From: Flectonema sp. DT1601
Lineage: Eukaryota
Assembly: GCA_964019425.1 (NCBI GenBank)
Contig: OZ025801.1
Location: 1,116,001 to 1,180,000, forward strand
Reading direction: 5' to 3'
Length of the DNA stretch: 64,000 nt
In this document: positions 25,905 through 50,896 of the stretch, piece by piece
How positions within the stretch are numbered: position 1 is the first letter of the stretch
How the letters are laid out: every line of letters begins with the position of its first letter
The notes under the pieces: model-generated
Databases searched by the model: none
What the model was told of the DNA's origin: nothing
The model's input: the letters and a program-made list of their open reading frames with translations, nothing else
Position numbers and translations under genes: made by a program

Positions 25905-26706
25905 ATGCCGCTGGCTGCGGGTATTGTTGGGGTTGTCGGGACGACGTCGGTGTTGTCACAAAGCGGATTGAACTCCGAGTTGAAAGAACTGGCTCTGAAG
26001 ATCCTTCCAAACATTCCCCGCCACGATGCGAAAATGTCGTACGAGTACCCTCCCCAGAATGTTGATTTCCACTACACCGTTGAGAAAAGAGTAATTTATT
26101 TAGTCGCCAACTACCGCGATGATCCCGACAAGATGGAGCGAAGAATACCATTTCTGTATTTAGATAAAGTGATGACGCAGTTTAAAGATTTTGTTGGTTG
26201 CGGAACATCATTTCCTGACGTCGACAACTTGACTGAAACGCAGTGTAGGGGATTTGATAAAAATATCACCGAGTGTCTCTCATTCTGCAACGACAGAGAC
26301 AAAATTAAATTAATTCAAAAGGACCTCGATGAGGTAAAGGAACAAGTTTTTAAGAATATTGAAACAGTCATGGCGAGAGGTGACAATCTCGAGAAGCTAA
26401 TGGACAAAGTAGACGATTTGACTGACGAGGTATGCTCTTTGAATATAAAGCAATTGTGTATAATACTAAGTCTCCATCCTAAACAAAACAGTCACGAACC
26501 TTCCAAAGAGGATCTAGAAAACTACACAGCAAGGTCCGATGGCGTAACATAAGATTAATTATCATTGTGGTTGTTGTTCTTATTGTGTTACTGTTAATTA
26601 TTTTAATGGTGGCTTGTAACCCTAATTTCGAGTATGTATTTAAAATATTCTTTTCAACTCAACACCAAACATAACCACACTAAACAAAAACAGTAAATGT
26701 AAGTAA
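25905..26706 (+). CDS. VAMP7-like longin R-SNARE, paralog 1 (exons 25905-26429, 26492-26631, 26694-26706)
   Basis: Longin motifs (KMSYEY, RIPFLYL), R-SNARE coil (NIETVMARGDNLEKL); spliced C-terminus gives WRNIR, a TM helix and CNPNFDKCK*. Confidence 0.85.
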
Positions 26707-26919
26707 TTGTCGCGATCGGTTCAACGATCCCTAGCCCTTATCAGATTGTATGCAATATTTACGACACCACTTGATTGTGAAACAAGTCTAATTCAATGAT
26801 TGATTTTTTTTTCGTTCTGTTTCTTGGTTCGGAACTTTGAACACGTTAGTTGCTTTCTTTTTATTTATTTGAGTTTAGCTTTAACATACTTCCCTCAGGA
26901 GATCTACAGCAAGTCAATT

Positions 26920-28416
26920 ATGCCACTCAATGCAGGGGTGATTGCGGTGGTGGGGGGGACATTATTAACACAACATGGGTTAGATGATGAGCTAAAGGGA
27001 GTCGTCAACAAAATTCTTCAAAAAATCCCTCGTCACGACTCAAAGATGTCATACGAGTATCCCCCAATGAACGTCGACTTTTCTTACGTTGTCGAAAATA
27101 GAATTATTTATTTAGTGGCTAACAATCGCGACGGAGAAAAGATGGAGTTTCGGATCCCTTTCACATATCTGGAGGAAATTAAGAAGAAATTTAAGAAAGA
27201 ATTTGCTGGCGGCGAAGACAAGTATCCAGAGATTGATGCTCTGTCAGAAGCTGGATGCCGTGAATTTGATAAAATTATAAAAGAAACTCTCAGCGTCTGT
27301 AATGACAAAGACAAAATTAAAAATGTCCAGTCACAGATTGATGACGTTCACGATATAGTTCTTCAGAACATTGAAAAGGTTATTGACAGAGGTGATAAAA
27401 TTGACACTCTCGTTGACAAAATCGACACCATTGATACCGAGGTATGTATAACAACCACTCCAAACAACCCCCTTTTTTTTTTTTTTTGCGGGAGGATAAA
27501 ATGGAAACTCCTTTCTTCGTCACTTAGTGTCACACAGTAAATTGGTTTTATCTCTTCTGACTCTGATCGTTGTTTCGACATACAGGAAGACCCGGCGAGC
27601 TGGGACAACTAGTCTTTCTTGTATTTAAGCATTTTTCGACTTGAAAGACATGACCTTCAGTTTATGAGTTCTCATGTTTCTGGGTTTGAGAGGGAATGTG
27701 CGCTTCTTCTCTTGATCATTTGTTCTCCTTGTCTCTGTACACAAAATATAATTCGTCGTCTGCCGAGCTTTACATTTGTCGCTGTAACAGTAAATAAAAT
27801 GGGGTGCAAAGAGGGAGAGTGAGAGTCGTCCGTCCTTTTGTCTCGATACAAGTTGTGCCGTCTCTTCTGTGGGGGCCTTCGCGTGTCGTGTCGAAGCCAT
27901 GTCGCTGGGAATCCTGTCTGGCATTTCCGGCCGTCTCCGTCACGTGTCGTGTCGAAGCCATGTCGCTGGGAATCCTGTCCGGCATTTTACTTTCGGTTCT
28001 GCGTCCCATGAGTCGTATTTAAATTCTAGTGGTATGAGAATGATGATACTACCACCCTGAATGGAGGTCGTACTACGCGCCTCGCATTTCAGTCAATCCG
28101 ACGACTGTCTCCTCGCAAGTATCTGATGCCACTCCACACCACCCGCTGTTCAACCCTTTTTGATTAGAAAAAAAAAAAACAACTAAAAAACAAAGGCGCG
28201 CACATTTCGCAAAGGAACCGGCAAGTTAAAGAACAAGATGTGGTGGAAAAACATTCGAATTATGATCATGATAGCTGTGCTTGTAATTGTTTTAATTTTA
28301 GTGATCTTACTAGTCGCCTGCAAGCCTAACTTCGAGTATGTTGATTACGAAACTTTTTCTTTTAATTATAAGAAGTTCATCATCACAACACAAATCTAAA
28401 CAGCAATTGTAGTTAG
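26920..28416 (+). CDS. VAMP7-like longin R-SNARE, paralog 2 (exons 26920-27441, 28196-28335, 28404-28416)
   Basis: Paralogous to the upstream gene with the same intron positions; NIEKVIDRGDKID, MWWKNIR, TM helix, CKPNFDNCS*. Confidence 0.85.
27882..27987. repeat. 45-bp direct repeat pair inside an expanded intron
   Basis: cgtgtcgtgtcgaagccatgtcgctgggaatcctgtc(t/c)ggcattt at 27882-27926 and 27943-27987, one mismatch. Confidence 0.9.
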
Positions 28417-30191: not shown

Positions 30192-31634
30192 ATGAAAATT
30201 CTGAGCAACTTAGTGCTGCTTATGACTGCTACTTCTGTAGGAGCAGTCTGTTTGGAGTGGAAATGCTTGTATCATTGGCAAGGATGTGACTATGGATGTG
30301 TAAATGGTGTGGTTGAAAGTAACGTGACGGAAGAGATTCAATTGGATTGTACTGGGCAAGGTGGTCAACAGATAGATGTGTCAGAACTGATATTCGGAGC
30401 GTTGAGACCATTTGCTTCAGTTGAGAGGGTCCCTGTTATAACTGGTTTTGAAGTTGTAAATGATTCAGTTGCTGAGTGGGTAGTCCTAAACCCTAATCCT
30501 GAAGACATTTATGAAGTCAGTTGTTTTGAATCTGCAACTACTTTAGGACAGATTACTTTTGAAGCCAATGTCACGAGGTGCGTGTCGGCTCTCTCTTGGG
30601 ATTTCGATGCCAACTACGGCTGCGGTGGAGAATTTGATCCCGACAACCATAGTTGCGAAAATGGGTGTTGGAGTAATCCAATCTGCTCAGGATACACTGG
30701 GCCGGAATCATTTACTCGTCGTCCAGCCAAAGATGATGAGCCTGACACCTTCCTCACCCCCAGAAAACCAATTACTGGTTGTGGCGACGGCTGCAAAAGG
30801 TATCAGGGTAAGGGTATATGTAACGCAACACCCCCTCCGTCATACAGTTATCATCCATACACTACGCAGTCTATCTTCTGTCTGAATCCCTTGGACACTT
30901 TCTCTATTCCGATGCCTTTGCATTTGCTAGACCTTGATAAAAACCCACTGATTTCGAATGAAATAGTTTTCCAAGATGAAAACCACACAACGGGCAGGAG
31001 CCGCCTTGCTAACACTACATATACCTGTTTGAAAGCAGGTGAGGTGCAGTACACAATTAATTATTGGGGTTTGGATTATATTAAATGCATTGAGTGTGTG
31101 GAAGGCCAAAATTGCACATGTTCGGGTGAGAATTGTGAAACCTGCCGACCAGCCAGTGTCACAGATGCCCCACAGACTTCAGCACCAACAATGTCTCCTT
31201 CGAATTACACAAAAACAAAAACCTTAACTTTAACAGTTCCAGTATCAGTTCCAACCAATGGTTTTGACACTGAAGTCCCGACTACAGCGCCGACATCTGT
31301 CCCAACCAACGGGACTTCAGCGCCGACATCTGTCCCTGACACTGAAGTTCCGACTATAGCACCGTCGCTTGAGCCGACATCAATTCCAACGTCGCCTGGA
31401 GACTCTAGTGGCGGAAGCGACTCATGCTCTTGCACTGAGAACGCCGCCGCCCTCGATAGTTGCATCAATTCAAAGGATGAAACGAAAAAGCTTCTTCTTA
31501 TTCTCCTTATAGCATGTATTGTCTTGGCATTGATTGTGATCGCACTTTTTGTGCACATCCGCAATCTCAAATCTGAGTTGAATGATAAAAATAACTACAA
31601 AGGAAACGACGTTCTTCTCAATGAATTTAATTAA
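30192..31634 (+). CDS. Cys-rich type I membrane/surface protein with Pro/Thr-rich stalk
   Basis: Signal peptide, Cys-rich ectodomain, (A/V)PT repeats, TM helix LLLILLIACIVLALIVIALFV, short tail. Confidence 0.8.
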   Translation: MKILSNLVLLMTATSVGAVCLEWKCLYHWQGCDYGCVNGVVESNVTEEIQLDCTGQGGQQIDVSELIFGALRPFASVERVPVITGFEVVNDSVAEWVVLNPNPEDIYEVSCFESATTLGQITFEANVTRCVSALSWDFDANYGCGGEFDPDNHSCENGCWSNPICSGYTGPESFTRRPAKDDEPDTFLTPRKPITGCGDGCKRYQGKGICNATPPPSYSYHPYTTQSIFCLNPLDTFSIPMPLHLLDLDKNPLISNEIVFQDENHTTGRSRLANTTYTCLKAGEVQYTINYWGLDYIKCIECVEGQNCTCSGENCETCRPASVTDAPQTSAPTMSPSNYTKTKTLTLTVPVSVPTNGFDTEVPTTAPTSVPTNGTSAPTSVPDTEVPTIAPSLEPTSIPTSPGDSSGGSDSCSCTENAAALDSCINSKDETKKLLLILLIACIVLALIVIALFVHIRNLKSELNDKNNYKGNDVLLNEFN

Positions 31635-32127
31635 TAGCGGTTGTGAAACGGTCTTGAACTTGTTCGACCTTGGGAGCCACATGTTTTTCCCAGAGTTTGT
31701 TGCTATTTATTTAGTTTTGCATTCTTTTTTTATTTTACGACTTACAATATGTTTCCGTTCCTGTTGGGTCCTCAACCCTAACATGTGACACATGCAGTCT
31801 TGTTTATAATTATTCCTGTAAAGTTAAGCTCTCTTTATTTTTCTAATCTGGCTGAGTGTGAAGTTTTTTTTACCGAATTCAACATTATTTCACACCTGGG
31901 CATGTTTGAACAAACTTGGAAACAAGTCTGCCTTTGACTCATTAGCCGCACTGACTTACGAAGCAGTCTCTTCCCACAATCTAAGAATTTCACCTACGTA
32001 CGACCCTCATGGCAAACCCGCAAGGTCCTCGCCTTTACCTTAAATTATTTCTTCGGGTTAAGAAACAAAAATGACCAATTATTCCACGCTTTGTCATACA
32101 CGCCTGGAAGACGAAAAAATTAAAAAT

Positions 32128-32199
32128 CAACCGTGGCAGGACTCGAACCTGCAACCGCCTGATCCGTAGTCAGGCGCTCTTCCATTGAGCCACACGGTC
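32128..32199 (-). tRNA. tRNA-Arg(ACG)
   Basis: Reverse complement GACCGTG-TGGCTCAATGGAAGAGC-G-CCTGA-CTACGGA-TCAGG-CGGTT-GCAGG-TTCGAGT-CCTGC-CACGGTT-G folds as a cloverleaf; anticodon ACG at 32167-32165; oligo-T terminator directly downstream. Confidence 0.95.
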
Positions 32200-32713
32200 A
32201 CTGAAAGACCGTTTTTTTTTTTTTTTTTTTTTTCTTTTGGTTACACTCGTCTGTGCTTCCAGACTCTTTGTTTTTGTTCTTTTCACTTCTTTGTTTTGTC
32301 TTTCTTTTATACTTTCTTTTGATTTAAGTCTGACAAATTGGAAAACACGGGAAACGTAGGTAGGCTCCGCCTGAGGACGTAAGAAGAGCGGCAACGGAAG
32401 AAAATAAATGGTCACGCGTCCTTGAAATTGGACACATGAAGCTAATTCGGTTACCATTCCTACCATCGATAAGGAAAAACAAAGAGTCGAGCATATAACT
32501 AGAGCGGTGGTCAAAGACCACTTGAACAGCCCGAAGGCCTGCCCTCAAGAGAAATTTATAAGGAGAATAGGAGAAGAAGGAGACAGGAGTGTTGGATGAG
32601 ACACTGCGACAACACCGAAGGTGATGTGCAGTTACCCAACCAGGAGATGATTGATAATGATGAAAATACTAAAATAATAACAAATTGATATTGGCGACTA
32701 CATGTCACCTACT

Positions 32714-35700
32714 TTACTTCCAAAGTCTAAGGTTAGATGTTTGTTCCATCCACCTTATGATCAACGCGAGTGATGGAAGCCACGCCAAAGTGAAGAGAGC
32801 TTCAAGGTTAGGAATTTCGTTGGCAATAATAAGTTCTCGATCGCGATCCCACTTGCCGGTCAGTGTTGAGAAGCCCAGGATTTTGAACCTGGCCGAGTCG
32901 AGTTTGGGAGATTGACATCCCTGTAGCAGGTGAACCTGTGAGGACGGTTCGCCACAAAATGGGCAGTCGATCGTCTTGCGCCAGTTCTGAATTAGCGGGT
33001 GACATCCTGTCCGGAAGTTCGCTATCCGTATCTCGTCGGCTCTTTCCATCCCAGGAGGGTATTTAACGGAACGGCCTCCGATGAGGTGTTTGTAGCAGGT
33101 GTAACCACTCACGTTAAGCAGATCCTTCTTGATGCAGCGCTTAACATGTGATGATCGCGAGAAATAAGTGCCTTTGACTAGCACAGGTCGGATGTTCTTG
33201 TTGTGCGCTGCTTCCTTTGCAAGCGCGTCAACTTCATCGTGAAACTCGATTCCAATGTGCGAGGGGATGAATTGCAAATGCACTTTCATCTCACACATGC
33301 GCAGGTATTCTAGTATCTTGAGGGACTCAGTATTCCTCTGTCTGCACCTTCCACCCAGCAGTTCATCCAGAAGGGATTTTGAGTCCGTGAATAACCTTAC
33401 AGATCTCATTGAAGGATCTTTGCTAAACACTGTTCTCAGATGTCTAGCCGCGTTCTTCAGAGCATGTTGTTCAGCCCTGTAGCTGCAGTCAGCTTGATAA
33501 AGCCTAGACGCGTAAGCAGATCGAAGGCCGCTACGTGACTTGGCAATATGAGCCGCACCGGCCGCGCCGGAAGCAGAGTAGGAGCCATCGCAGTTGATTA
33601 CCATGTCGACAGGAGGTAACGTTCCAATGTACGACATGAATTTTTCTTTGTCCACCGCAGGGTTCGCGGACTTCGGAAATCCGCAGCCGTTGCTAATCCT
33701 AAGGTTTGTCGGAGATACCCAGGGTTCCATCGAGTCAGGCTGTACAAGGCACTGGCTTTCACGCTGGCTGTCAATGCCAGGAAGGAGGCCAGCCCAGTAG
33801 CTTTGGGTTGAGGCGAGTCTGTTGGTACTAGGTATCCAAGTCATGGCTTTATACCTGTAGTACGCTATCTTGGTTTGCTTTTCAATCTGACGTTTAAAAG
33901 GAAGCATGTCCGCTTCCCACAGTAGAAGTTCTCTCGGTGTGCACCTGCTGCATCCAGTAACCAGCCTGGCAACCTTCCTCAGTTCGAAATCAATACTATC
34001 AACGCTGTTGCTTATCAACCAACCAAAGCTATCGAGTGCATAAGAGATTCTCGCAGTTACGTAAAGGTTCTTGACCATATTTAGCGTTTTGTAGTCAAGA
34101 TCATACGGTTGAAGGCATTGAAGCAGAGATATTCCCTTTTTCAGTTCTTCATGAATCTTAGCCACCTGTTTGTGGAAAGTGAGTCTGTCGTCGATGTGAA
34201 CCCCGAGGTATTTCACTGAGTCCACGATTGGCAACAGAAATGCGGTTTTAAATCTGGCTTTCACCACCATCACGTTGTCTTCGAGAACAATATTCCGCAA
34301 CATCACGTTGTCAAGTTCGTCTTGCGTTTTGATCGGAGTTCCATCAACCTCGAGAATAGTTTCGCCGCTTTGAAGCATGGGTCTAGAAGAGTTTAAGTTG
34401 ATACTCTTTTCAATGTCACTATAGTCCATTTTGATAACGTTTTCCACAACAGATCTGGAAAATAGTAATTCGCGATTGCAGGTGTCGTTGAGAATCGTAT
34501 CCTTCGTACGGACTATCATCTTAAGAGCACAGGTCTTTGAGACCGACAGGGCCATGTCGTTGTCAGAACACCATTGATCCACTTTATCAAGTATTATTTG
34601 TGCATTTGAAAGAGCTTCTTCCATGTTATGTCCAGATACTACACATGCTGTATCATCCGGATACAGAGCAGACGTCGTTGTTTCCTTCTCCAGTTCCAAA
34701 ATCTTGCAGAGGTCATCAACGTAGATAAGATAGAGAAGAGGACCCAGGATCGATCCCTGTGGAACCCCCTTAGCCAGAGTACGGAATTCGCTAAGATAAC
34801 CATTCGCTTCAACTCTAACTTTCCTGTTTGTAAGAAAGTCTGTGATCCATCTGATAATAACATTCGGAACACCCATCTTTACCAATTTTAATAAAAGTAT
34901 CTTATGATTGATCCTGTCAAACGCAGCAGTAAAATCAAACGATAAGAACACCGATCTCTTTCTCTTCATGTGCATCCTTACGACGGCATCTACCAAAACG
35001 GTGATCTGTTCGCAGGTATTTCTCCCCCTTCTGAATCCAGCCTGTAGTGGGCTGAGTGACGAATGTTTAGTGAGCCAGTGCATGAGTCGGTCATACACGA
35101 GCCTCTCCGCAAGTTTCCCAACAACCGATGTGAGCGTAATGGGTCTGAAACTCTTCAGTTCATTTCGAGGTTTTCCAGCCTTGAACATAGGCTTGATTAA
35201 ACCTTGTTTCCACTGATACGGTACTTTTGAAGTCTTCCAGGAAGTGTTAATAATTCTCAAGAGGTATTCCACTGTTGCCGGAGTGAAGTTTTTGATCATC
35301 TCATTGTGAACTCCATCAGGTCCTGCAGCCTTGCGGGTCTTCAGGTTCTTAATCGCTGCTTCAATTTCGGCCATTGTGAAATCACAGCAAATATCCATTT
35401 CATTATCACCTTCTGAGAGTGCGGGGGCCTCTAGCGATAATATTTCCGATTTCGAGACAAACAGGTCCAAGAATGCTGATGGTAGATCGCAGTCAGAGAT
35501 GTTGTTGACACTGATATCTTTACCAGCATCTTGCTGCAGTTCTTTGATCTTCTTAAACGCAAAGGCAAAGTTGTTACCCTTGTCAAGTTGATCACGTAGG
35601 TGGACACCCTTCGATTTGGCGGAATCAGGAGTTGACGTCTTCCACTTTCGTCTCCGTTTCCCTTTGAAAAGGACACGTCGACGAATGAATTTAGCCGCTA

Positions 35701-36520
35701 CTTCATGCAGTATGTTGTTAAAGAGCTTAGCATTCGCAGTTGCATCGTTGGAGAGTTTCGATTTTCTAATTCTCTTATCGAGCATATTTCCAAAGCAGTT
35801 CCAGTCCGTAGACTTGAAGTCCCACACTACGCGTTTCTTAGAACCTATCGTGGCCCGTGTAAGTTGACACATGGGATCCAGTACGGTGTAGAGAGGTCGG
35901 TGATCAGATCCATGTTTATTATCTTCTCTAATTACAGAGAATTCTTCCAGAATCATCGAGTTTTGAAAAAATATTACGTCCGGCGAGGTACCGCCCCCCG
36001 GGATATTAGGAAAAGGCCTTGTGATTGACCCCATCTTGTTGGCTACCAGTAGATCATTGTGTGCTGCCCATTCATGTAGAGTAGAACCTGCTGGCGTCGA
36101 TTTTGATGACCACACCGGATGATGGGCATTAAAGTCACCCGCGACGATTGCTTTCGTTGAGACTGGAAGATCTGACTTTCTGATCTTGCATCCCGGGGGA
36201 GCATAAATATTTAAGATGTCAATCTTTCCACCTATGTTGACCTTTACAACTTCAACATCATTTAAGTGAGGCGGAAGTACGATATCAGAACGCTGCTGAG
36301 TGTGGCATTTCTTCACCATAGTAATAACCCCACCACCCCGTGTTGCCCTATCATTCCGATAGGTAAAATAATCCGTGTGTGAGACTACATCTTTTGTCCA
36401 AGTTTCTTGCAGGCACAGTACGTCAGGCGCATAGGCATTGAGCAGCTTGTGTATGTAGGCACCTTTGTTCCCCATTGATCGACAGTTCCAGCTTAGTAGT
36501 GATATGAGGGAGTCGTCAGG
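32714..36520 (-). CDS. LINE ORF2p: AP endonuclease, reverse transcriptase, RNase H, CCHC finger (predicted to start at the post-2A Pro, 1268 aa)
   Basis: SWNCRS, LCLQETW, GDFNAHH, SDHRP (APE); KAAGPDG, FRPITLTS, DFTAAFD, GVPQGS, YPDD, KYLG (RT); DGS, AE, TDS, SH...D (RNase H); CPFC..H...C. The ORF-track Met at 36475 lies downstream of APE motif I. Confidence 0.9.
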   Translation of the reverse strand, partial: PDDSLISLLSWNCRSMGNKGAYIHKLLNAYAPDVLCLQETWTKDVVSHTDYFTYRNDRATRGGGVITMVKKCHTQQRSDIVLPPHLNDVEVVKVNIGGKIDILNIYAPPGCKIRKSDLPVSTKAIVAGDFNAHHPVWSSKSTPAGSTLHEWAAHNDLLVANKMGSITRPFPNIPGGGTSPDVIFFQNSMILEEFSVIREDNKHGSDHRPLYTVLDPMCQLTRATIGSKKRVVWDFKSTDWNCFGNMLDKRIRKSKLSNDATANAKLFNNILHEVAAKFIRRRVLFKGKRRRKWKTSTPDSAKSKGVHLRDQLDKGNNFAFAFKKIKELQQDAGKDISVNNISDCDLPSAFLDLFVSKSEILSLEAPALSEGDNEMDICCDFTMAEIEAAIKNLKTRKAAGPDGVHNEMIKNFTPATVEYLLRIINTSWKTSKVPYQWKQGLIKPMFKAGKPRNELKSFRPITLTSVVGKLAERLVYDRLMHWLTKHSSLSPLQAGFRRGRNTCEQITVLVDAVVRMHMKRKRSVFLSFDFTAAFDRINHKILLLKLVKMGVPNVIIRWITDFLTNRKVRVEANGYLSEFRTLAKGVPQGSILGPLLYLIYVDDLCKILELEKETTTSALYPDDTACVVSGHNMEEALSNAQIILDKVDQWCSDNDMALSVSKTCALKMIVRTKDTILNDTCNRELLFSRSVVENVIKMDYSDIEKSINLNSSRPMLQSGETILEVDGTPIKTQDELDNVMLRNIVLEDNVMVVKARFKTAFLLPIVDSVKYLGVHIDDRLTFHKQVAKIHEELKKGISLLQCLQPYDLDYKTLNMVKNLYVTARISYALDSFGWLISNSVDSIDFELRKVARLVTGCSRCTPRELLLWEADMLPFKRQIEKQTKIAYYRYKAMTWIPSTNRLASTQSYWAGLLPGIDSQRESQCLVQPDSMEPWVSPTNLRISNGCGFPKSANPAVDKEKFMSYIGTLPPVDMVINCDGSYSASGAAGAAHIAKSRSGLRSAYASRLYQADCSYRAEQHALKNAARHLRTVFSKDPSMRSVRLFTDSKSLLDELLGGRCRQRNTESLKILEYLRMCEMKVHLQFIPSHIGIEFHDEVDALAKEAAHNKNIRPVLVKGTYFSRSSHVKRCIKKDLLNVSGYTCYKHLIGGRSVKYPPGMERADEIRIANFRTGCHPLIQNWRKTIDCPFCGEPSSQVHLLQGCQSPKLDSARFKILGFSTLTGKWDRDRELIIANEIPNLEALFTLAWLPSLALIIRWMEQTSNLRLWK

Positions 36521-36562
36521 GCCAGGGTTGCGTTCGACATCGCCTGCCTGAAGCAGCAGTTC
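36518..36562 (-). other. 2A-like StopGo (ribosome-skipping) peptide ELLLQAGDVERNPG|P
   Basis: Translation of 36562-36518 matches the D(V/I)ExNPGP consensus with upstream LLxxAG, in frame with ORF2. Confidence 0.9.
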
Positions 36563-36621
36563 ACGAGCCGTATTCTTTTCTGTGAGTGAGTTGGTCGGAT
36601 TTAAATCATCGTCATCTTCAT

Positions 36622-36628
36622 CTAGTCA
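36622..36628 (-). promoter_or_regulatory. Stop-codon readthrough context UGA-CUAG
   Basis: ORF1 stop TGA (36628-36626) is followed by CTAG; it is the only stop between ORF1 and ORF2, which share a frame. Confidence 0.75.
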
Positions 36629-38275
36629 GTTGAGGTCAAAATCCGAGTCATCATCTTCCATTTCAACATCGCCGTTCTTATCACCTTCTTGTTTAACAGC
36701 AGATTCAGTGGGTGGTGGAGCTGATGCTGGTGTGGGTGCTGGCGCTGGTGTCGGTGCTGCTGCCGTCTGATGTGGTAGCTGAGTTGGTTGTTGTGGTTGA
36801 GGAGCTGTCTTCTGTCTCTTCAGGGTTCCTGTCAGTTTTTGAGCCGCGTCGCCTGGGTTGTAGGTTGGGCCTAGCGGTTTTCTGTCACTTTTCTTAACTT
36901 CCTTGTTTATCACAAGGTACTCATTGGTGCCTATGCTCACGAAGTTGGGAGGCTGCGTGTTTGAAATCGCCACAATCGTAGTGCTTCCACCTTTGTTAAA
37001 CGATGCGACCACTGTGTGCTCCCAGTTGTGAGAGGACTTCATAAAGTCGCTGATCTGCGCTGTTGAGAATTTCCGTATCGCCATTGATTTTATAATGTAC
37101 CTGTCACCGGAAGGCAGTGCAGGTTTGAGTGACGCGCTTAACTTAATACGCACTTCAGTGTTGCAGTCGGGATGAACTCGGAGTCCATAACAGGTTTTGA
37201 ACTTACACAGGTAGAATTTACCTTCGAAACCTTCCAGTATTGATGTCTTGGACTTTGCTGCCAAGAATCCAAGATCGTTATTGAATTGAAGAGTTGGCCA
37301 GACATCGCTTCCATTTGACCAGCTCGGGTTTCTGACAAATACATTCTTAGGTTTGTCGGTCTCCGGGTCGTTATTGTTAAACTCCAGAATCTTGTGTACT
37401 TGGTTTCTGGGAATTCTAATAGCCATTGAGGAATGTGAATCATTTCGTTTGTAACTGAAAGGGGCTGCATTAATCTTTTTCTTTTTTAGCAGTTCCTTTG
37501 TTTTGATCGTTAGATCTTTTTCACTTGATTTGCCCCAATCCTGAACAAACAAGACGGGGTCGGGTGTCGGATGTTGAATTTCGGATGTGGCTTTGGAAAA
37601 ATCTTCACCACAGATATGCGTGTAGAAGACTCGTCTGATTTCGCAGACACCACCCTTTTTGATCACCGGTATGGCGACAGGCACCGTGCTTTTGGTTAGC
37701 GGTACTTTGCTGATTGCAGCCCATCGACCACTCTTCTTTGTCTGACGGAGAGCTTCCCAGTCCTGTTTAGAGCGTACTAAAACAAGACCCGATGCGAGAT
37801 TGTTGGTAGCATTCGCTGCTACGTCGTAGTTGATTGTAGACACAGTGCCCGCCCACGCGCCGTGTACATGCCATTCCGGGTAGCTTGCTTTAGCATTTCC
37901 CTTTGTGGTTTGTTTAGTCGATGTTGATGATGGTACAGGCAGCGGAAACGAAAAGGTTGATTGTTTAGGTGCCGATGTTGTCTGTTGATTAGAAGCTGTA
38001 GACGCCTCTGTTGTCGGTTGATTGCTGCCTGCGGTTGGGGCCGTCGCTTCGGTTGCCGTCGCGGTCGCATCCGTCCCACCACCCACTTCGGGAGTGTCCG
38101 GTCTTCTTCTTTTCATCTCAGGGTTCCCACCTTCCGACCCCGTCACGAACTGGATAACCTCCATCAGGAGATTCGCCACTCTTTTCTCTTTCTCATACTC
38201 GGGGATCCCATCATCTCCCACCATCTTCAGGAGGTTCATAGCCTCCGATACTAACCTCCTCAGGTTGTCTCTCAT
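36626..38275 (-). CDS. LINE ORF1p (549 aa from ATG 38275)
   Basis: Long ORF upstream of ORF2 with basic KRRR, T/A- and Q/P-rich segments and an acidic tail; no CCHC or RRM recognised. Confidence 0.8.
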   Translation of the reverse strand: MRDNLRRLVSEAMNLLKMVGDDGIPEYEKEKRVANLLMEVIQFVTGSEGGNPEMKRRRPDTPEVGGGTDATATATEATAPTAGSNQPTTEASTASNQQTTSAPKQSTFSFPLPVPSSTSTKQTTKGNAKASYPEWHVHGAWAGTVSTINYDVAANATNNLASGLVLVRSKQDWEALRQTKKSGRWAAISKVPLTKSTVPVAIPVIKKGGVCEIRRVFYTHICGEDFSKATSEIQHPTPDPVLFVQDWGKSSEKDLTIKTKELLKKKKINAAPFSYKRNDSHSSMAIRIPRNQVHKILEFNNNDPETDKPKNVFVRNPSWSNGSDVWPTLQFNNDLGFLAAKSKTSILEGFEGKFYLCKFKTCYGLRVHPDCNTEVRIKLSASLKPALPSGDRYIIKSMAIRKFSTAQISDFMKSSHNWEHTVVASFNKGGSTTIVAISNTQPPNFVSIGTNEYLVINKEVKKSDRKPLGPTYNPGDAAQKLTGTLKRQKTAPQPQQPTQLPHQTAAAPTPAPAPTPASAPPPTESAVKQEGDKNGDVEMEDDDSDFDLN

Positions 38276-38332
38276 AATTGCTTTTCCTGTGAAACGTACC
38301 CACTGATTCTTACCAATATTTGGTTGCGAAAT

Positions 38333-38363
38333 CAATAAAGTACAGAAAGTACAGAAAGTACAG
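38333..38363 (-). other. Spliced-leader relic with tandem CTGTACTTT repeats
   Basis: Minus strand reads CTGTACTTT-CTGTACTTT-CTGTACTTTATTG. TTTCTGTACTTTATTG is the conserved 3' end of the euglenozoan (Leishmania/diplonemid-type) SL exon. Confidence 0.8.
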
Positions 38364-38630
38364 TTTTTTTTTCTCTTTTCTTCTTTTTCGATTCTTTTAA
38401 CTTTATATTTGTCTTCTTTTTTCTTTTTTTAAATAAGTTTTTACTCTTTGAGTGTCTACCTACGATACTCGGTGGTCTGATGGACTTGCTAACTAACTAA
38501 CTAACTTTTTCTTTCTTAGGCCTCACTCATGCGCACTCACTTGCTTATTTATTTAGTTATAAAAATAAGAAGAGCGAGTACGCTCAGAAAGAAAACAAAA
38601 AATAAGACAGGGGTGTGACTTTTCTTTTTA

Positions 38631-38747
38631 AGAGAATTGTGGCAGCGTAACTAACCTATTCCTTTATTAGGATTTTCTACCGGTTGCGCGCAAACAAAAT
38701 AAAAGTGTGAGTGAGTAAGTAAAAAGTGAAGTTTGCCGATTCTTTTT
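38631..38747. repeat. ~115-bp dispersed repeat, copy 2
   Basis: Same-orientation homolog of 21020-21134. Confidence 0.85.
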
Positions 38748-39009
38748 CTTTCCCCTTCCGAAATCCATTATTTTCGGTGCACATGACGCTGCAGAAAATA
38801 TTACTTATGAATCATTTAGGTGTTAGTTTCTTTTTTTACCGTTTGTCCTAATACCTGCGCTCTTATAAAAGACAGGAACGCGCAACTGTCAGGAGTCCGC
38901 TAGTTTTCGTGCTCTTTCTATTGTTCTTGACATTTTCTATTCCTTCTTTCGAGTGTTCTCTCCCTTACTGGTTCTGTTATACATTTTCTATTCAGGACGG
39001 AATGCAAGT

Positions 39010-45826: not shown

Positions 45827-48800
45827 GTGGATAATGTTGATGAAGTTGCTCAGTACATTAAAAGTAACTACTCCTCTCTTCAAGAAATGAGAGTTAGCAC
45901 TTTTGACTTCTCAGATATGTACACCAACTTACCACATACAAAAATTAAAGCTGTTATTAATACATTAGTCGAAGAATACATTGGAGACAATTTGATAGTT
46001 AGAGATAAACGAAGTCGAATTGGTAAAGATTTCTACTTGGCAAACGAATTTAACGAAGATGTGCAAGTTGCTTACAACATAGAGGAGATCAAGGAACTAC
46101 TGAATGTAATACTATCTAATTCTTATATTAAAAATGGTGACCATATGTTAAGGCAATGTCATGGTATTCCAATGGGTTCTCAATGCTCTCCTCACATTGC
46201 TAATCTGTACTGCTTTGGTATCGAAAAGAACTGGATTGACAACATCATCCATAGCAATGGTTTAAGTATTGCTAATGACAGGATAATCTTCAGATATATT
46301 GATGACTTTCTAATCTTTAGTAAGAATGAACCTACTCCACCTCCGCAAGCTGAATATCAAATGTCATACACAGATACGTCACTTGGACGCAATGACATAG
46401 TTTTCCTAGGAATGAGAGTAAGATTTGAAGAAAGACCAAGAGGACATCCATTCATTCGTCTGTCAATTTGGGACAAAGAAAATCTGTTCAATTTTCAACC
46501 CATCAAATACACAAGCTCGACATCAAACGCACCAAGAAGCCTTGGTCCGGGCATATTGAAAGGAGCCTTGTACAGAGCAGCAACCAATATCAACAATGAC
46601 TTCGACTTATACTTGGAAATCGAAAAGGTGATTTACAGGCTACGCAGCCGAGGGTACTCGAAGAAGAGCCTCTTCCCACAATACAAAGATTTCATTCTTA
46701 GTACATACTGGGATTTTCCGAAACAGAGAGATAACCTCCAGCAATTCTTTTTCAAGACAAATTGGAGATATGACAAGGAACTACCCGTCACCTCTGAGAA
46801 GAAAACAATCCAACAGTACTACAAACTGAATGGACGAGATGACATTTATAACATGTTACTCGATAAGAACGTTGGGTATGCAAAACTCAAAAAATGTAAT
46901 AACACCATGGTTACTGCATTCCGGATTGCAAGTCACTCAATCACTAACAATCCAGATCAATGTCTAATATGTTCCACCGCAATAAACAAGAACACTGAGA
47001 CACAGATTGATGCTTTGGATATTAAATATCGCAATGGGATATTTAAAGTAACCAAATTTTGCAAAGACTTCGACAAAATACTACCTGTTAACATCAGTAT
47101 TCTATCATACGACCAGGGTAAGACAACCCGTGAAATAATTAACAAACATGTGAATCACGAATGTCACATGGTTGTTGGTCGTACTAATGGAGGTTATTAC
47201 TTTCCAATTACAAGTAAATATACGGAAAGTAATATTCAAAAAATCTTCCTCAAGGTTGACACGCCTGGAAAATCGGCGGAAGTTACAACAGAAGGGAAGT
47301 CAACTCCTAACACATCAGATACTGATGTAGTTATGACAGACAACACCACAGAAACGCAAGAAGATGAAACGGAAAAATCTCAAACTGAAAAACCGGTTAT
47401 GAAGAATGATAGAGATCCTGAATGGGATATCTCGATCGATAAAAGGTTTCCTATTTCTATGCACACTAAACCAGCTGAAGGCCTTAACAGCGGTGAGTGT
47501 GGCTGGGCCACCATTAATTTTATGGCTGATTATCTGAACATCGAGAGAATTCAGATATCTAAAGTCTTTAAGATTCAAGATGAGTTGGCAACACAAGAAA
47601 TGAAGTGGTTAGGATTGGTTGAAATGTTCCAATTCAATCCTGATGGATGGTTTCACCAATTAGTCATATATGAGACAATTAAGATTCATCTGTCCTTAGA
47701 AATACACCATTGTACCAGCGCAGAAGATTTAGATAAAGTCAACAATATACTCAAAGAACAAAACCTAAAACGCTTTCCATTCGTTATAATTACACGTAGA
47801 TTAGCATACACTCACTATATCTTATTTATCGGAAAAGATACAGAGTATACAGGATATGATATCATTCAACACACTCCAAGTTATGAAACGTGGAATGACA
47901 TTGCCAGGATATATCCTTTGGAAACATTTGACTATCACTTCGCATTCTGCCCTACAAAAAACAATCCTATGGAGAAACTCCAATTTCCGAACCTCGATTA
48001 TCCAACAATGGAGCCCCACATGGAAAACAAACAAGAGAAAGATACTCTTAGTCAAAAGACGAATGATAACGATGACACAGCACTGTTATACGAGATGTTA
48101 CAGAAATTTGAAGAGGATGATATCTCTACAACAGCTAAAGCCGCAGATCCATTGGATTTGAGATCTTCGAATGAAAATACTACTCATAAGGAAGTCATTC
48201 AAGAACCAAAGAAAGTCATTCAAGAACCGAAGGAAGTCATTCAAGAACCAAAGGAAGTCATTCAAGATCCAAAGGAAGTCATTCAAGATCCAAAGGAAGT
48301 CATTCAAGATCCAAAGAAAGTCATTCAAGATCCAAAGGAAGTCATTCAAGAACCAAAGGAAGTCACTCAAGATCCAAAGGAAGTCACTCAAGATCCAAAG
48401 AAAGTCATTCAAGATCCAAAGGAAGTCATTCAAGATCCAAAGGAAGTCATTCAAGATCCAAAGAAAGTCATTCAAGATCCAAAGGAAGTCATTCAAGATC
48501 CAAAGGAAGTCATTCAAGATCCAAAGGAAGTCATTCAAAATCCAGAGATAGATACACACCTAGATCCAAAAATAGGTCAGCAAGATGTGGATTTGGACGA
48601 TAAGGAAGCAATAGTTGTTGCTAACAAGGCTTCTAAACCCAATACTCACTTCGACATCACTGATTACATAACTTCTGAAGATCAAAAGTCAAATGATTTT
48701 GTAAGTGGAACCACAAAGCTCACTAAGTTTCCCAATCATATCTTGAACACCAATCAGAATACTAACTTATGTCATATGGAATATGCTACACCAAATACCG

Positions 48801-50896
48801 ATGTACATATGGAATCACCAATGACCACTATTCTAACTGGTCCACTTTATAATACGGATACACAATTTAATTACGAAAATACAACACTTATAATTGCAAC
48901 ACCGCAGATTATACCAACCATCCCAAACTTTCATAACCTATATCACAGCTCATCTGGGTGTCAAATCATGGCGGTATCACCTCTGAGAATATACAAAGTA
49001 AATACAATTGCTGCCATCTCACCCCCACAAGTCTATCACAACGGGGACAGCATTGTTGCCATCTCACCGCCAACTATCCATGATACTAAGAGTCCAACAG
49101 ATGTTACTTCACCAACTCGGATGGATATTGATATTGACACGGTGATTGCCGTCAATAACAGAAGTCTATATGATATTGACATCATCCCACCACCACATGT
49201 GGATACTCTTATAAGTACCAAGAAAAAGAGTAACGACTCAATTCATAAAACTTGCCTTACCGATGTCGATAACAATAGCTACAACGAGATATCACCACCA
49301 CAAACGGATGTACATATGTTGATCAATAACAATGATCTCAACGTAATTGAGCCTATTGCACCACCACATACGGGTGTTCATACGGTAATTAACAACAACA
49401 GTCTCGAGACATTCGGGTATATTTCACCACCGCAGACTGGTATTCATATGCCTATAGTTATCGACAACAACAGTATCAACGCAAACGAACTTGCTTCACC
49501 ACCACAAACTAATGTTCATATGGAGGTCAGAAACAATAGTCTCATTGCGACTGAGGCTATATCACCACCGTGTTTAGAAACACCTGAACATCGACATGTG
49601 TTTGAAACACCGGTAAAACAAAAGTCGGGAGGCAAAATCAAAACTCCGACAACCAACAAGATTGTCCCACAAGAACCACTAACTTGTTGGAATGGACACA
49701 ATCGGGAGCTTATTTATGATTTAGCAATGAATAGGCAACCTAACAAGATTGTTACAACATACACTGCACCATCGTTAAAAGTTACAACTCCGAAAACAGC
49801 AGCACGAAATAACACTGTTGTCATAGACACAGAAGATAGTATGAACCCCGTAACTTCAATGCCGGAAAGTTTAAGTGATGCCCTTGAACCTTGTTCAAAA
49901 CGTAACAAAAAGTCCAATATACTGTCTCATAAACATGCTATGAAGCAATCCAAAAAGAAAGCTTTCAATAATGGATCTCACGAGTCAATTATCCCTAAAA
50001 CTAAAGTCATTACGCAATCACATACGCAGATTAAGGATAAAACATCGGAACCTATCAATGAAGAATCTAGTAAGATACTTCCCCAACTTAAAGATGAAAC
50101 CGGAAGTAAGAAAGATGAGACATCGTCGCATGTTGAACTAGAAAAGGCAACAGAAGTTAATACAATAGTTGAGAACTCAATGACCGACGTGCCAACGACA
50201 ACATCCTCGTCAGAACCATCCTACAAAGATACAACGCATATCAAGAGGAAATGTAAATATTGCTTCAAGACTAAAAAATCAATTATTGATCATGTCCACA
50301 TATGCGCAATATTCAGAGCCTCAAAGGACTTTCCATATTACATGGATCATGATAATACAACGTATGAAGTTAACAACAGTGATGGCTCCAACAAGATCAC
50401 AATGGTCATCAAGGAGAAGAAGAAATTAAACATGCGGTCTATCAAAAGAGGTACAAAACTAGTAACACAAATTCTTGAGAAAGAGGATAGTACACTAACT
50501 ACACCAAAAAGAGATACCCGCAAAAGATTAAATTCTGAAAGTCCGATTCCAATAATCGAATTTAATGGATACATGGACAAGGACAAGAGAAAAAAGTTAG
50601 AGAATAAGAACGGATCTAAAAGTAAACGCAAGATCAAAGTTGAGGTTAATAAGATGCTAGTCGCTTCAACAAAAAAGAAGGAGAAGTCGAAATATACAAA
50701 GAGATTAAATTCTGAAAGTCCTATGCAGCCGCTACTAAGAAAAGATGTACGAAAGAAACGAGCCAAACAAGAAGATATCAACACACCTAAAAGTGAAGAT
50801 AAAGAGAACGTTACGAACATCTTAGATACTCCTTCGACTCCTGCTTTACATGATTTTGAAGATGTATCAGAGTATGCATCAGAGCTTGATAATTAA
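45827..50896 (+). CDS. PLE polyprotein: truncated RT, Josephin-like protease, tandem repeats, C2HC finger
   Basis: STFDFSDMYTNLPH, QCHGIPMGSQCSPHIANLY, FRYIDD, VFLGM. The frame opens at 45815 with no RT N-terminus. CKYCFKTKKSIIDHVHIC lies near the C-terminus. Confidence 0.85.
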   Translation: MDNVDEVAQYIKSNYSSLQEMRVSTFDFSDMYTNLPHTKIKAVINTLVEEYIGDNLIVRDKRSRIGKDFYLANEFNEDVQVAYNIEEIKELLNVILSNSYIKNGDHMLRQCHGIPMGSQCSPHIANLYCFGIEKNWIDNIIHSNGLSIANDRIIFRYIDDFLIFSKNEPTPPPQAEYQMSYTDTSLGRNDIVFLGMRVRFEERPRGHPFIRLSIWDKENLFNFQPIKYTSSTSNAPRSLGPGILKGALYRAATNINNDFDLYLEIEKVIYRLRSRGYSKKSLFPQYKDFILSTYWDFPKQRDNLQQFFFKTNWRYDKELPVTSEKKTIQQYYKLNGRDDIYNMLLDKNVGYAKLKKCNNTMVTAFRIASHSITNNPDQCLICSTAINKNTETQIDALDIKYRNGIFKVTKFCKDFDKILPVNISILSYDQGKTTREIINKHVNHECHMVVGRTNGGYYFPITSKYTESNIQKIFLKVDTPGKSAEVTTEGKSTPNTSDTDVVMTDNTTETQEDETEKSQTEKPVMKNDRDPEWDISIDKRFPISMHTKPAEGLNSGECGWATINFMADYLNIERIQISKVFKIQDELATQEMKWLGLVEMFQFNPDGWFHQLVIYETIKIHLSLEIHHCTSAEDLDKVNNILKEQNLKRFPFVIITRRLAYTHYILFIGKDTEYTGYDIIQHTPSYETWNDIARIYPLETFDYHFAFCPTKNNPMEKLQFPNLDYPTMEPHMENKQEKDTLSQKTNDNDDTALLYEMLQKFEEDDISTTAKAADPLDLRSSNENTTHKEVIQEPKKVIQEPKEVIQEPKEVIQDPKEVIQDPKEVIQDPKKVIQDPKEVIQEPKEVTQDPKEVTQDPKKVIQDPKEVIQDPKEVIQDPKKVIQDPKEVIQDPKEVIQDPKEVIQNPEIDTHLDPKIGQQDVDLDDKEAIVVANKASKPNTHFDITDYITSEDQKSNDFVSGTTKLTKFPNHILNTNQNTNLCHMEYATPNTDVHMESPMTTILTGPLYNTDTQFNYENTTLIIATPQIIPTIPNFHNLYHSSSGCQIMAVSPLRIYKVNTIAAISPPQVYHNGDSIVAISPPTIHDTKSPTDVTSPTRMDIDIDTVIAVNNRSLYDIDIIPPPHVDTLISTKKKSNDSIHKTCLTDVDNNSYNEISPPQTDVHMLINNNDLNVIEPIAPPHTGVHTVINNNSLETFGYISPPQTGIHMPIVIDNNSINANELASPPQTNVHMEVRNNSLIATEAISPPCLETPEHRHVFETPVKQKSGGKIKTPTTNKIVPQEPLTCWNGHNRELIYDLAMNRQPNKIVTTYTAPSLKVTTPKTAARNNTVVIDTEDSMNPVTSMPESLSDALEPCSKRNKKSNILSHKHAMKQSKKKAFNNGSHESIIPKTKVITQSHTQIKDKTSEPINEESSKILPQLKDETGSKKDETSSHVELEKATEVNTIVENSMTDVPTTTSSSEPSYKDTTHIKRKCKYCFKTKKSIIDHVHICAIFRASKDFPYYMDHDNTTYEVNNSDGSNKITMVIKEKKKLNMRSIKRGTKLVTQILEKEDSTLTTPKRDTRKRLNSESPIPIIEFNGYMDKDKRKKLENKNGSKSKRKIKVEVNKMLVASTKKKEKSKYTKRLNSESPMQPLLRKDVRKKRAKQEDINTPKSEDKENVTNILDTPSTPALHDFEDVSEYASELDN
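48188..48544 (+). repeat. Coding minisatellite, 17 x 21 bp (K[EK]V[IT]Q[DEN]P)
   Basis: Unit aaggaagtcattcaagatcca repeated in tandem with few variants. Confidence 0.95.

Follow-up and report, generated by a model that had tools for sequence, protein, structure and literature searches.

A LINE with an ORF1 stop in UGA-CUAG context and a 2A motif ahead of ORF2, a candidate tandem of readthrough and StopGo

The DNA analyzed here is a stretch of 64,000 nucleotides from contig OZ025801.1 (positions 1,116,001 to 1,180,000 of the forward strand; hereafter the window), and the element in question is a multicopy long interspersed nuclear element (LINE) with two open reading frames (ORFs), the second of which encodes an apurinic/apyrimidinic endonuclease (APE), a reverse transcriptase (RT) and an RNase H. 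By our reading of the sequence the LINE lies on the minus strand throughout (Table 1). ORF1 ends with DFDLN, the codons across its stop being AAC TGA CTA GAT, and after the TGA its frame stays open for 1303 codons, down to 32714. This frame reads, in order, LDEDDDDLNPTNSLTEKNTARELLLQA, GDVERNPG/P (the slash marks the predicted skip), DDSLISLL, SWNCRS and only then M, the first in-frame ATG past the stop (36475) being codon 51 and lying beyond motif I of the APE. An AUG in the +1 frame after CTAG yields MKMTMI and a stop alone, with no path into ORF2. An earlier note on this DNA, made from the sequence by a model, had described the DFDLN-UGA end of ORF1, the open ATG-less frame and a first Met after SWNCRS; all of this was confirmed in the sequence, on the minus strand. 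In the ORF2 frame Pfam places the APE at codons 44-242 and the RT at codons 487-800, with PF03372 and PF14529 ahead of PF00078, all above the cut-off, which puts the APE N-terminal to the RT; the Exo_endo_phos match begins upstream of Met 36475. The 2A motif is accompanied by a hydrophobic upstream helix, RELLLQAGDVERNPGP, and fits the motif definition of PMC3708506 (papers are cited by PubMed Central number, and statements about them refer to the parts that were available). The products predicted from the frame are an ORF1p-2A of 585 aa and an ORF2p of 1268 aa, the sizes which the earlier note had given and which our computation reproduced. We favor, with moderate confidence, the reading that ORF2 is reached by readthrough of UGA-CUAG and then by 2A StopGo.

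Other copies of the element were compared as protein clusters, in which near-identical copies account for 101 ORF2 and 13 ORF1 products, and the exact ORF1 protein of the window is present on five contigs. Three families were distinguished on long ENA contigs, A (that of the window), B and C, and were taken as copies in one or few related assemblies; ORF1 of family B is about 79% and that of family C 46% identical to family A. The host is probably a diplonemid, because the nearest named relatives of the element are transcripts of Flectonema neradi, namely TRINITY_DN1157, DN2455 and DN4749; families B, C and F. neradi are known here from proteins alone. Our sample of ORF1-like products comprised 49 sequences (13/13, 15/20 and 15/18 members of three clusters and 6 singles). 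The last conserved ORF1 motif, GP[TV][YF], was reached by 40 of the 49, and in every one of these (40/40) the last residue was Asn, although the tails differed, ending in DFDLN (21), MDNSN (12), EMDSN (3) and, once each, QYRN, HYSN, DEMN and QMEN. The Asn-ended products fall into six unrelated tail types, come from no fewer than two organisms and include two F. neradi transcripts. Of the remaining nine products, eight were either truncated or shifted, and P0128, which is distant, ended in NQQ. Asn makes up 4.2% of the tail residues, and the chance that five further unrelated tails end in Asn would be about 1e-7 if they were independent, a value that is overstated because the tails share ancestry. 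No protein was found to run on past an ORF1 tail (0/143), and no fused ORF1-ORF2 protein was found either in a search of proteins of 962-2745 aa, which was a weak one, or in a profile search of 1.84 billion representatives (6 matches, 93-505 aa). At the DNA level, a depth-2 contig from another public run (X2) covers 36545-36695 with 0 differences, TGACTAG included; a further contig (X1) stops 1 base beyond the TGA and so falls short of spanning the junction. The earlier note had been prepared to give up its idea if other copies carried a sense codon here, and none was seen in these comparisons.

Across the copies compared, the ORF1 stop is fixed. A one-off nonsense mutation of a single-ORF ORF1-2A-ORF2 element would be in keeping with the acidic residues on both sides of the stop, with the fused ORF1p-2A-ORF2p elements of Cordylochernes (PMC13405545) and with the fact that the window copy has another private change, YPDD, in its RT; but it is rejected because all 40 products, with their six types of tail and from two organisms or more, share the Asn-stop end, X2 is identical and no fused form was found, and we regard it as refuted for practical purposes. 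CTAG follows TGA in 7/2642 triplets (0.26%) on both strands of the window, a rarity that is weak evidence on its own because the finding was selected from many windows; the comparisons across copies carry the weight. We also rejected the use of UGA as a sense codon in the host, as, apart from ORF1, UGA terminates 3 of the 22 ORFs checked, none of these 3 host ORFs with CTAG, and Trp uses TGG. The most distant ORF1 relative, P0128 from F. neradi, has Gln instead of Asn as its last residue.

Motif I of the APE is invariant in 5/5 families and would be lost from a protein begun at AUG 36475, which is therefore a poor start; the earlier note had likewise doubted this Met. The ORF2 cluster has 101 members, and of the 15 that were listed six start with MGNKG, after motif I, three start with MEKDT and the others are partial. 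All six ORF2 products of family A are called from MGNKG (four were compared and showed 5 to 8 differences from P0001), and MEKDT is the start of family B, at -13 from the G of GDVE, from which all linker positions below are counted. Translation of ORF2 from a separate, spliced or trans-spliced mRNA, or from AUG 36475 itself, would suit a host that looks euglenozoan, as judged from the F. neradi relatives, since trans-splicing occurs in euglenozoans, and CTGAC-TAG resembles a branch point followed by an acceptor consensus. We nevertheless consider it very improbable: of the 16 AGs in 36760-36471, 15 have an out-of-frame ATG as the next ATG downstream and the remaining one (36493) would give a start at 36475 and cost the protein its motif I, and the highest pyrimidine score of any window at the junction was 0.63 vs 0.63-0.85 at 14 host genes.

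The linker of family A contains no in-frame AUG, and its in-frame near-cognate codons stand at -11, -9, -5 and -4 only. From -18 to -10, a window chosen after viewing the alignment, 6/9 residues are shared with P0002 of family C and 5/9 with P0003 of F. neradi; from -27 to -19 the figures are 0/9 and 1/9, respectively. The conserved PT.S..E of family A lies 5' of all in-frame codons, AUG or near-cognate, at which translation could start, and for this reason ribosomes probably arrive in the linker from upstream. Family C products (P0002) begin with MKPTT at -26, which was initially read as evidence against readthrough. In the output of the gene caller a GTG or TTG start appears as M (in 7/43 placeable starts; of 72 starts in total, 17 coincided with that of the reference and 12 could not be placed), and because of this the 'M' of P0002 is compatible with TGA CTA GTG at the same 27-codon spacing. 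In P0004 the first Met stands just before motif I. Among the relatives the stop, Asn and 2A are conserved and the start positions are not.

These observations bear also on termination at the UGA followed by non-AUG reinitiation within the linker, as in L1, after which the 2A would trim the leader and ORF2p would again begin at Pro. AUG-independent translation of the L1 ORF2 was reportedly described by Alisch in 2006. The junction is less structured than its shuffles, the called starts differ among relatives (-26, -23 and -13), a variation that the 2A would render harmless, and SART1 is described as using termination-reinitiation, which has also been proposed for mammalian L1 (PMC5972666). Reinitiation, however, leaves the UGA-CUAG context, with its 0.26% background, and the in-frame layout unexplained and offers no obvious account of the fixed Asn, and the PT.S..E of family A sits 5' of all the in-frame near-cognates where it would have to begin. 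We judge it unlikely.

The 2A motif GDVERNPGP is kept in P0057 and P0002, in families that are 93% and 67% identical in ORF2. This conservation, together with the canonical form of the window 2A, its LLL helix and the activity of the ingi-clade 2As that were tested, one of them highly active (PMC3708506), argues against readthrough combined with a weak or output-lowering 2A, in which case the working product would be mostly an ORF1-ORF2 fusion of about 1853 aa, similar to Gag-Pol. Such a fusion would agree with the off-consensus 2A of P0003 and with the finding that 2A-like motifs of LINEs are often weak or reduce the protein level (PMC3708506, PMC13405545), yet it seems improbable for the window element.

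If ORF2 is reached by readthrough and StopGo, most ribosomes would end at the UGA and release the 549-aa ORF1p, and a few percent would incorporate a residue there by near-cognate decoding and go on into the 27-codon linker, from which the N-terminal portion of the 2A helix would come. The Gly-Pro bond would then be skipped, yielding the 585-aa ORF1p-2A and the 1268-aa ORF2p, which would start at Pro and have its APE motif I intact. Readthrough would fix the ORF1p:ORF2p ratio, and StopGo would detach the 585-aa leader without a protease, all on one mRNA. In human cells readthrough at UGA_CUAG amounts to about 1.5-17%, with the P-site codon as a major determinant, Asn codons being unmentioned in the available part of that paper (PMC9841425); we infer that a similar dependence on the P-site codon could account for the invariant Asn. 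It is possible that the Asn instead serves the C-terminus of ORF1p.

Several points weigh against readthrough followed by StopGo. CUAG was seen only in DNA of family A, that is, in the window and in one depth-2 contig, and for families B, C and F. neradi the proteins alone leave the frame across the stop unread. Because P0003, a 'complete' transcript ORF of F. neradi, carries a Met at -23 and a start is called at -13 in family B, those families could initiate instead of reading through, and the 2A of P0003, GNVEVNPGP, departs from the consensus. Of two reporter-tested peptides ending in LLLLAGDVERNPGP, one skipped and the other did not (PMC13405545, supplement file 3); the window's own 2A peptide was not found in the available supplements of that paper. 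The stimulatory 3' stem that the earlier note had suggested looking for is absent, as the RNA from 36640 to 36470 folds worse than its shuffles (z +1.92) and sliding windows starting 0-150 nt past the stop gave no negative z. Our literature search, which left most subscription papers outside its scope, listed nothing on UGA-CUAG readthrough in euglenozoans. The window copy itself may be impaired, because its RT reads YPDD where 24/24 related ORF2 products covering the site have YADD; the family nevertheless looks recently active. Thus, the proposal of the earlier note is partly upheld: the fixed stop and the conserved linker speak for it and the 2A is kept in P0057 and P0002, with a variant in P0003, whereas the 3' stem failed to appear and TGA-CTAG was seen in family-A DNA alone.

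A wider claim, which we put forward tentatively as somewhat more doubtful than not, is that an Asn-UGA-CUAG/27-codon/2A cassette is ancestral and common to an entire clade of diplonemid LINEs, in which Asn-tuned readthrough would meter ORF2 and StopGo would free it. If true, this cassette would do the work of gag-pol control without a protease, and Euglenozoa would have their first natural example of readthrough at CUAG. The Asn at the end of ORF1, invariant in the 40 products, is a naturally selected candidate for a 5' determinant of termination. How the ORF2 of LINEs is translated has been called an open question (PMC3894237, PMC3708506), and the window element belongs to a successful family that lacks an AUG before APE motif I and carries two recoding signals 27 codons apart; as both signals are recognizable, each step can be tested by point mutation.

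As a control we scanned metagenomes for 2A followed by TGGAA, which gave at least 121 loci (about 160 estimated), of which 120 were analyzed. Among the matches listed, these 120 loci contained 131 motifs, 64 with in-frame WN, of which 51 were unique and 43 had a visible upstream stop. TGACTAG was found upstream of 2A-before-WN in none of these 43 unique loci (0/43), a few of which are not LINEs; 34 of them had a Met before the 2A, 16 had a TGA stop, and a long upstream frame was present in one (L107), all among the matches listed. A short leader before the 2A is the usual arrangement, as in PMC3708506. In a viral scan TGACTAG before 2A was not found at 32-62 nt and was found twice at 62-92 nt, both times out of frame, and 30 viral 2A loci had no LINE-like frame downstream. 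L107 (1-1245, minus strand), of a different lineage, has a 239-codon frame, a TGA (TGA ACG), 14 codons without Met, a 2A and an APE, and L129 has a TGA 16 codons ahead of its 2A; these two could be another design with a stop ahead of a 2A, or else single-ORF copies that have decayed.

The window element shares with L1Tc/ingi of Trypanosoma and with Ingi-1_AC a 2A that lies just 5' of APE-RT-RNase H in the same frame, a poly(A) end and tandem copies (PMC5814959, PMC3708506). It has the 2A before the APE and the RNase H after the RT but not the single ORF of ingi/L1Tc: ingi-clade elements seem to be without ORF1 (PMC3894237, available part), whereas the window element has an ORF1 of 549 aa, conserved in several families, whose stop stands 27 codons before the 2A. 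If the proposed mechanism holds, the 2A would have been retained beside ORF1 as a release device and not as the replacement of ORF1 that was proposed for ingi. Further, the window element has one Cys/His knuckle and L1Tc, by the title of a reference, two C2H2 fingers, and no Rfam ribozyme of the Pr77/hepatitis delta virus-like kind was matched in 31500-39000 at E<=1, a search that a divergent one could escape. CR1-26_BF, CR1-53_BF and CR1-1_LG have an ORF1 and a 2A in ORF2, in the same order as here (PMC3894237), and in Cordylochernes a 2A lies between the ORF1p and ORF2p domains of single products (PMC13405545), where the window element is split by a stop; in the available parts of these papers no in-frame leaky stop is described, and the ORF1 of the window has no Pfam match. 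Group 3 LINEs of Paramecium have ORF1 and ORF2 in one frame, and their ORF2 has been suggested to require readthrough at the end of ORF1, a suggestion that there too comes from sequence, namely from consensus sequences; unlike the window element they belong to a ciliate clade, and no 2A is mentioned in the available part (PMC5405496). The same UGA and CUAG (+4 to +7) context is found in OPRL1, DUS4L and other human genes, which differ in being measured in mammalian cells, with no LINE and no native 2A after the stop (PMC9841425). Cardioviruses resemble the proposed arrangement in that two closely spaced recoding events set the ratio of structural proteins to enzymes, but these are viruses and StopGo comes first, followed by a -1 frameshift (PMC5009743). 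The genome paper of Diplonema papillatum lists LINEs, and in the available main text the stop-then-2A detail is not mentioned (PMC10161547). The earlier note had known of no such combination in a LINE, and we found none in the literature searched; each half is known (PMC5405496, PMC3894237, PMC13405545). The window junction is real and conserved, and the tandem is built from two known parts.

ORF1p is predicted to consist of N-terminal helices, ferredoxin-like domains of RRM/ACT type and a Pro/Thr-rich and then acidic tail. The predicted local distance difference test (pLDDT) value of the model was 64.8, and residues 237-325 fitted RRM and ACT domains equally (best Z 7.3, root-mean-square deviation 2.6, 74 residues aligned). 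These predicted domains are consistent with RNA binding and are not proof of it. Foldseek gave no match to the model at E<=0.001, a Pfam search with ORF1 gave no match, an ESM Atlas search no usable match, and no ORF1 relatives were found among the metagenome, genome or viral contigs searched.

Table 1. Features of the LINE and its 3' neighbor in the window (positions of the window; all on the minus strand)
Feature	Position	Strand	Basis
Probable 5' end of element; CTGTACTTT three times in tandem	38345..38363	-	Sequence; in copy P0096 an element 3' untranslated region (UTR)/poly(A) is followed by sequence that matches from 38347 on
ORF1, 549 aa; no Pfam family	36626..38275	-	ORF listing, Pfam scan, predicted structure
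Asn codon AAC immediately 5' of ORF1 stop	36629..36631	-	Sequence
TGA-CTAG, ORF1 stop in readthrough-prone context	36622..36628	-	Sequence; same in X2 contig; motif in PMC9841425 (available part)
In-frame linker, 27 codons, without ATG	36545..36625	-	Sequence
+1-frame mini-ORF MKMTMI-stop, start directly 3' of CTAG	36601..36621	-	Sequence
PT.S..E motif (PTNSLTE); equal spacing in P0002 and F. neradi P0003	36578..36598	-	Protein comparison
2A motif GDVERNPG/P, LLLQA before it	36518..36544	-	Predicted skip between Gly 36523-36521 and Pro 36520-36518
APE motif I (SWNCRS), then first in-frame ATG (36475)	36473..36493	-	Sequence, Pfam
ORF2 from 2A Pro, 1268 aa	32714..36520	-	Pfam and sequence
APE domain of ORF2	about 36496-35900	-	Pfam
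RT domain of ORF2	about 35167-34226	-	Pfam
RNase H domain of ORF2	about 33613-33194	-	Domain scan
CPFC..HLLQGC, C-terminal in ORF2	within 32714..36520	-	Sequence
RT motif YPDD in window copy	34652..34663	-	Sequence
3' UTR, 20-nt poly(A) at its end (32231-32212)	32212..32713	-	Sequence
Host tRNA-Arg(ACG), 12 nt downstream of element poly(A)	32127..32200	-	tRNA scan

The linker also holds T_TTA_AAT in the ORF2 frame (36599-36605, minus strand), a heptamer of slippery type; a -1 shift there would hit a stop, no structure follows, and its presence is probably due to chance. The flanks of the element showed no clear target-site duplication, the matches between them being no longer than 11 nt and mostly of low complexity, and both element ends are A-rich. 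The copies P0096 and P0120 join the 3' UTR of one element to the ORF1 of the next copy, which implies that head-to-tail arrays exist. A tRNA-Arg(ACG) gene of the same orientation follows the poly(A) of the window element at a distance of 12 nt (32127-32231, minus strand), and it is possible, based on this one site, that the element inserts just upstream of tRNA genes; no paper on such targeting was found in our literature search.

Except for both LINE ORFs, all ATG-initiated ORFs of at least 200 aa in the window are on the plus strand, an arrangement that resembles the polycistronic gene clusters of euglenozoans. A second RT-like ORF of 1669 aa (45887-50896, plus strand), with a weak RVT_1 match at residues 72-148 and tandem VIQDPKE repeats, lies in a low-GC stretch and belongs to a different retroelement. 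Two similar ORFs, which resemble longin/VAMP SNAREs, lie side by side at 25905-27540 (plus strand).

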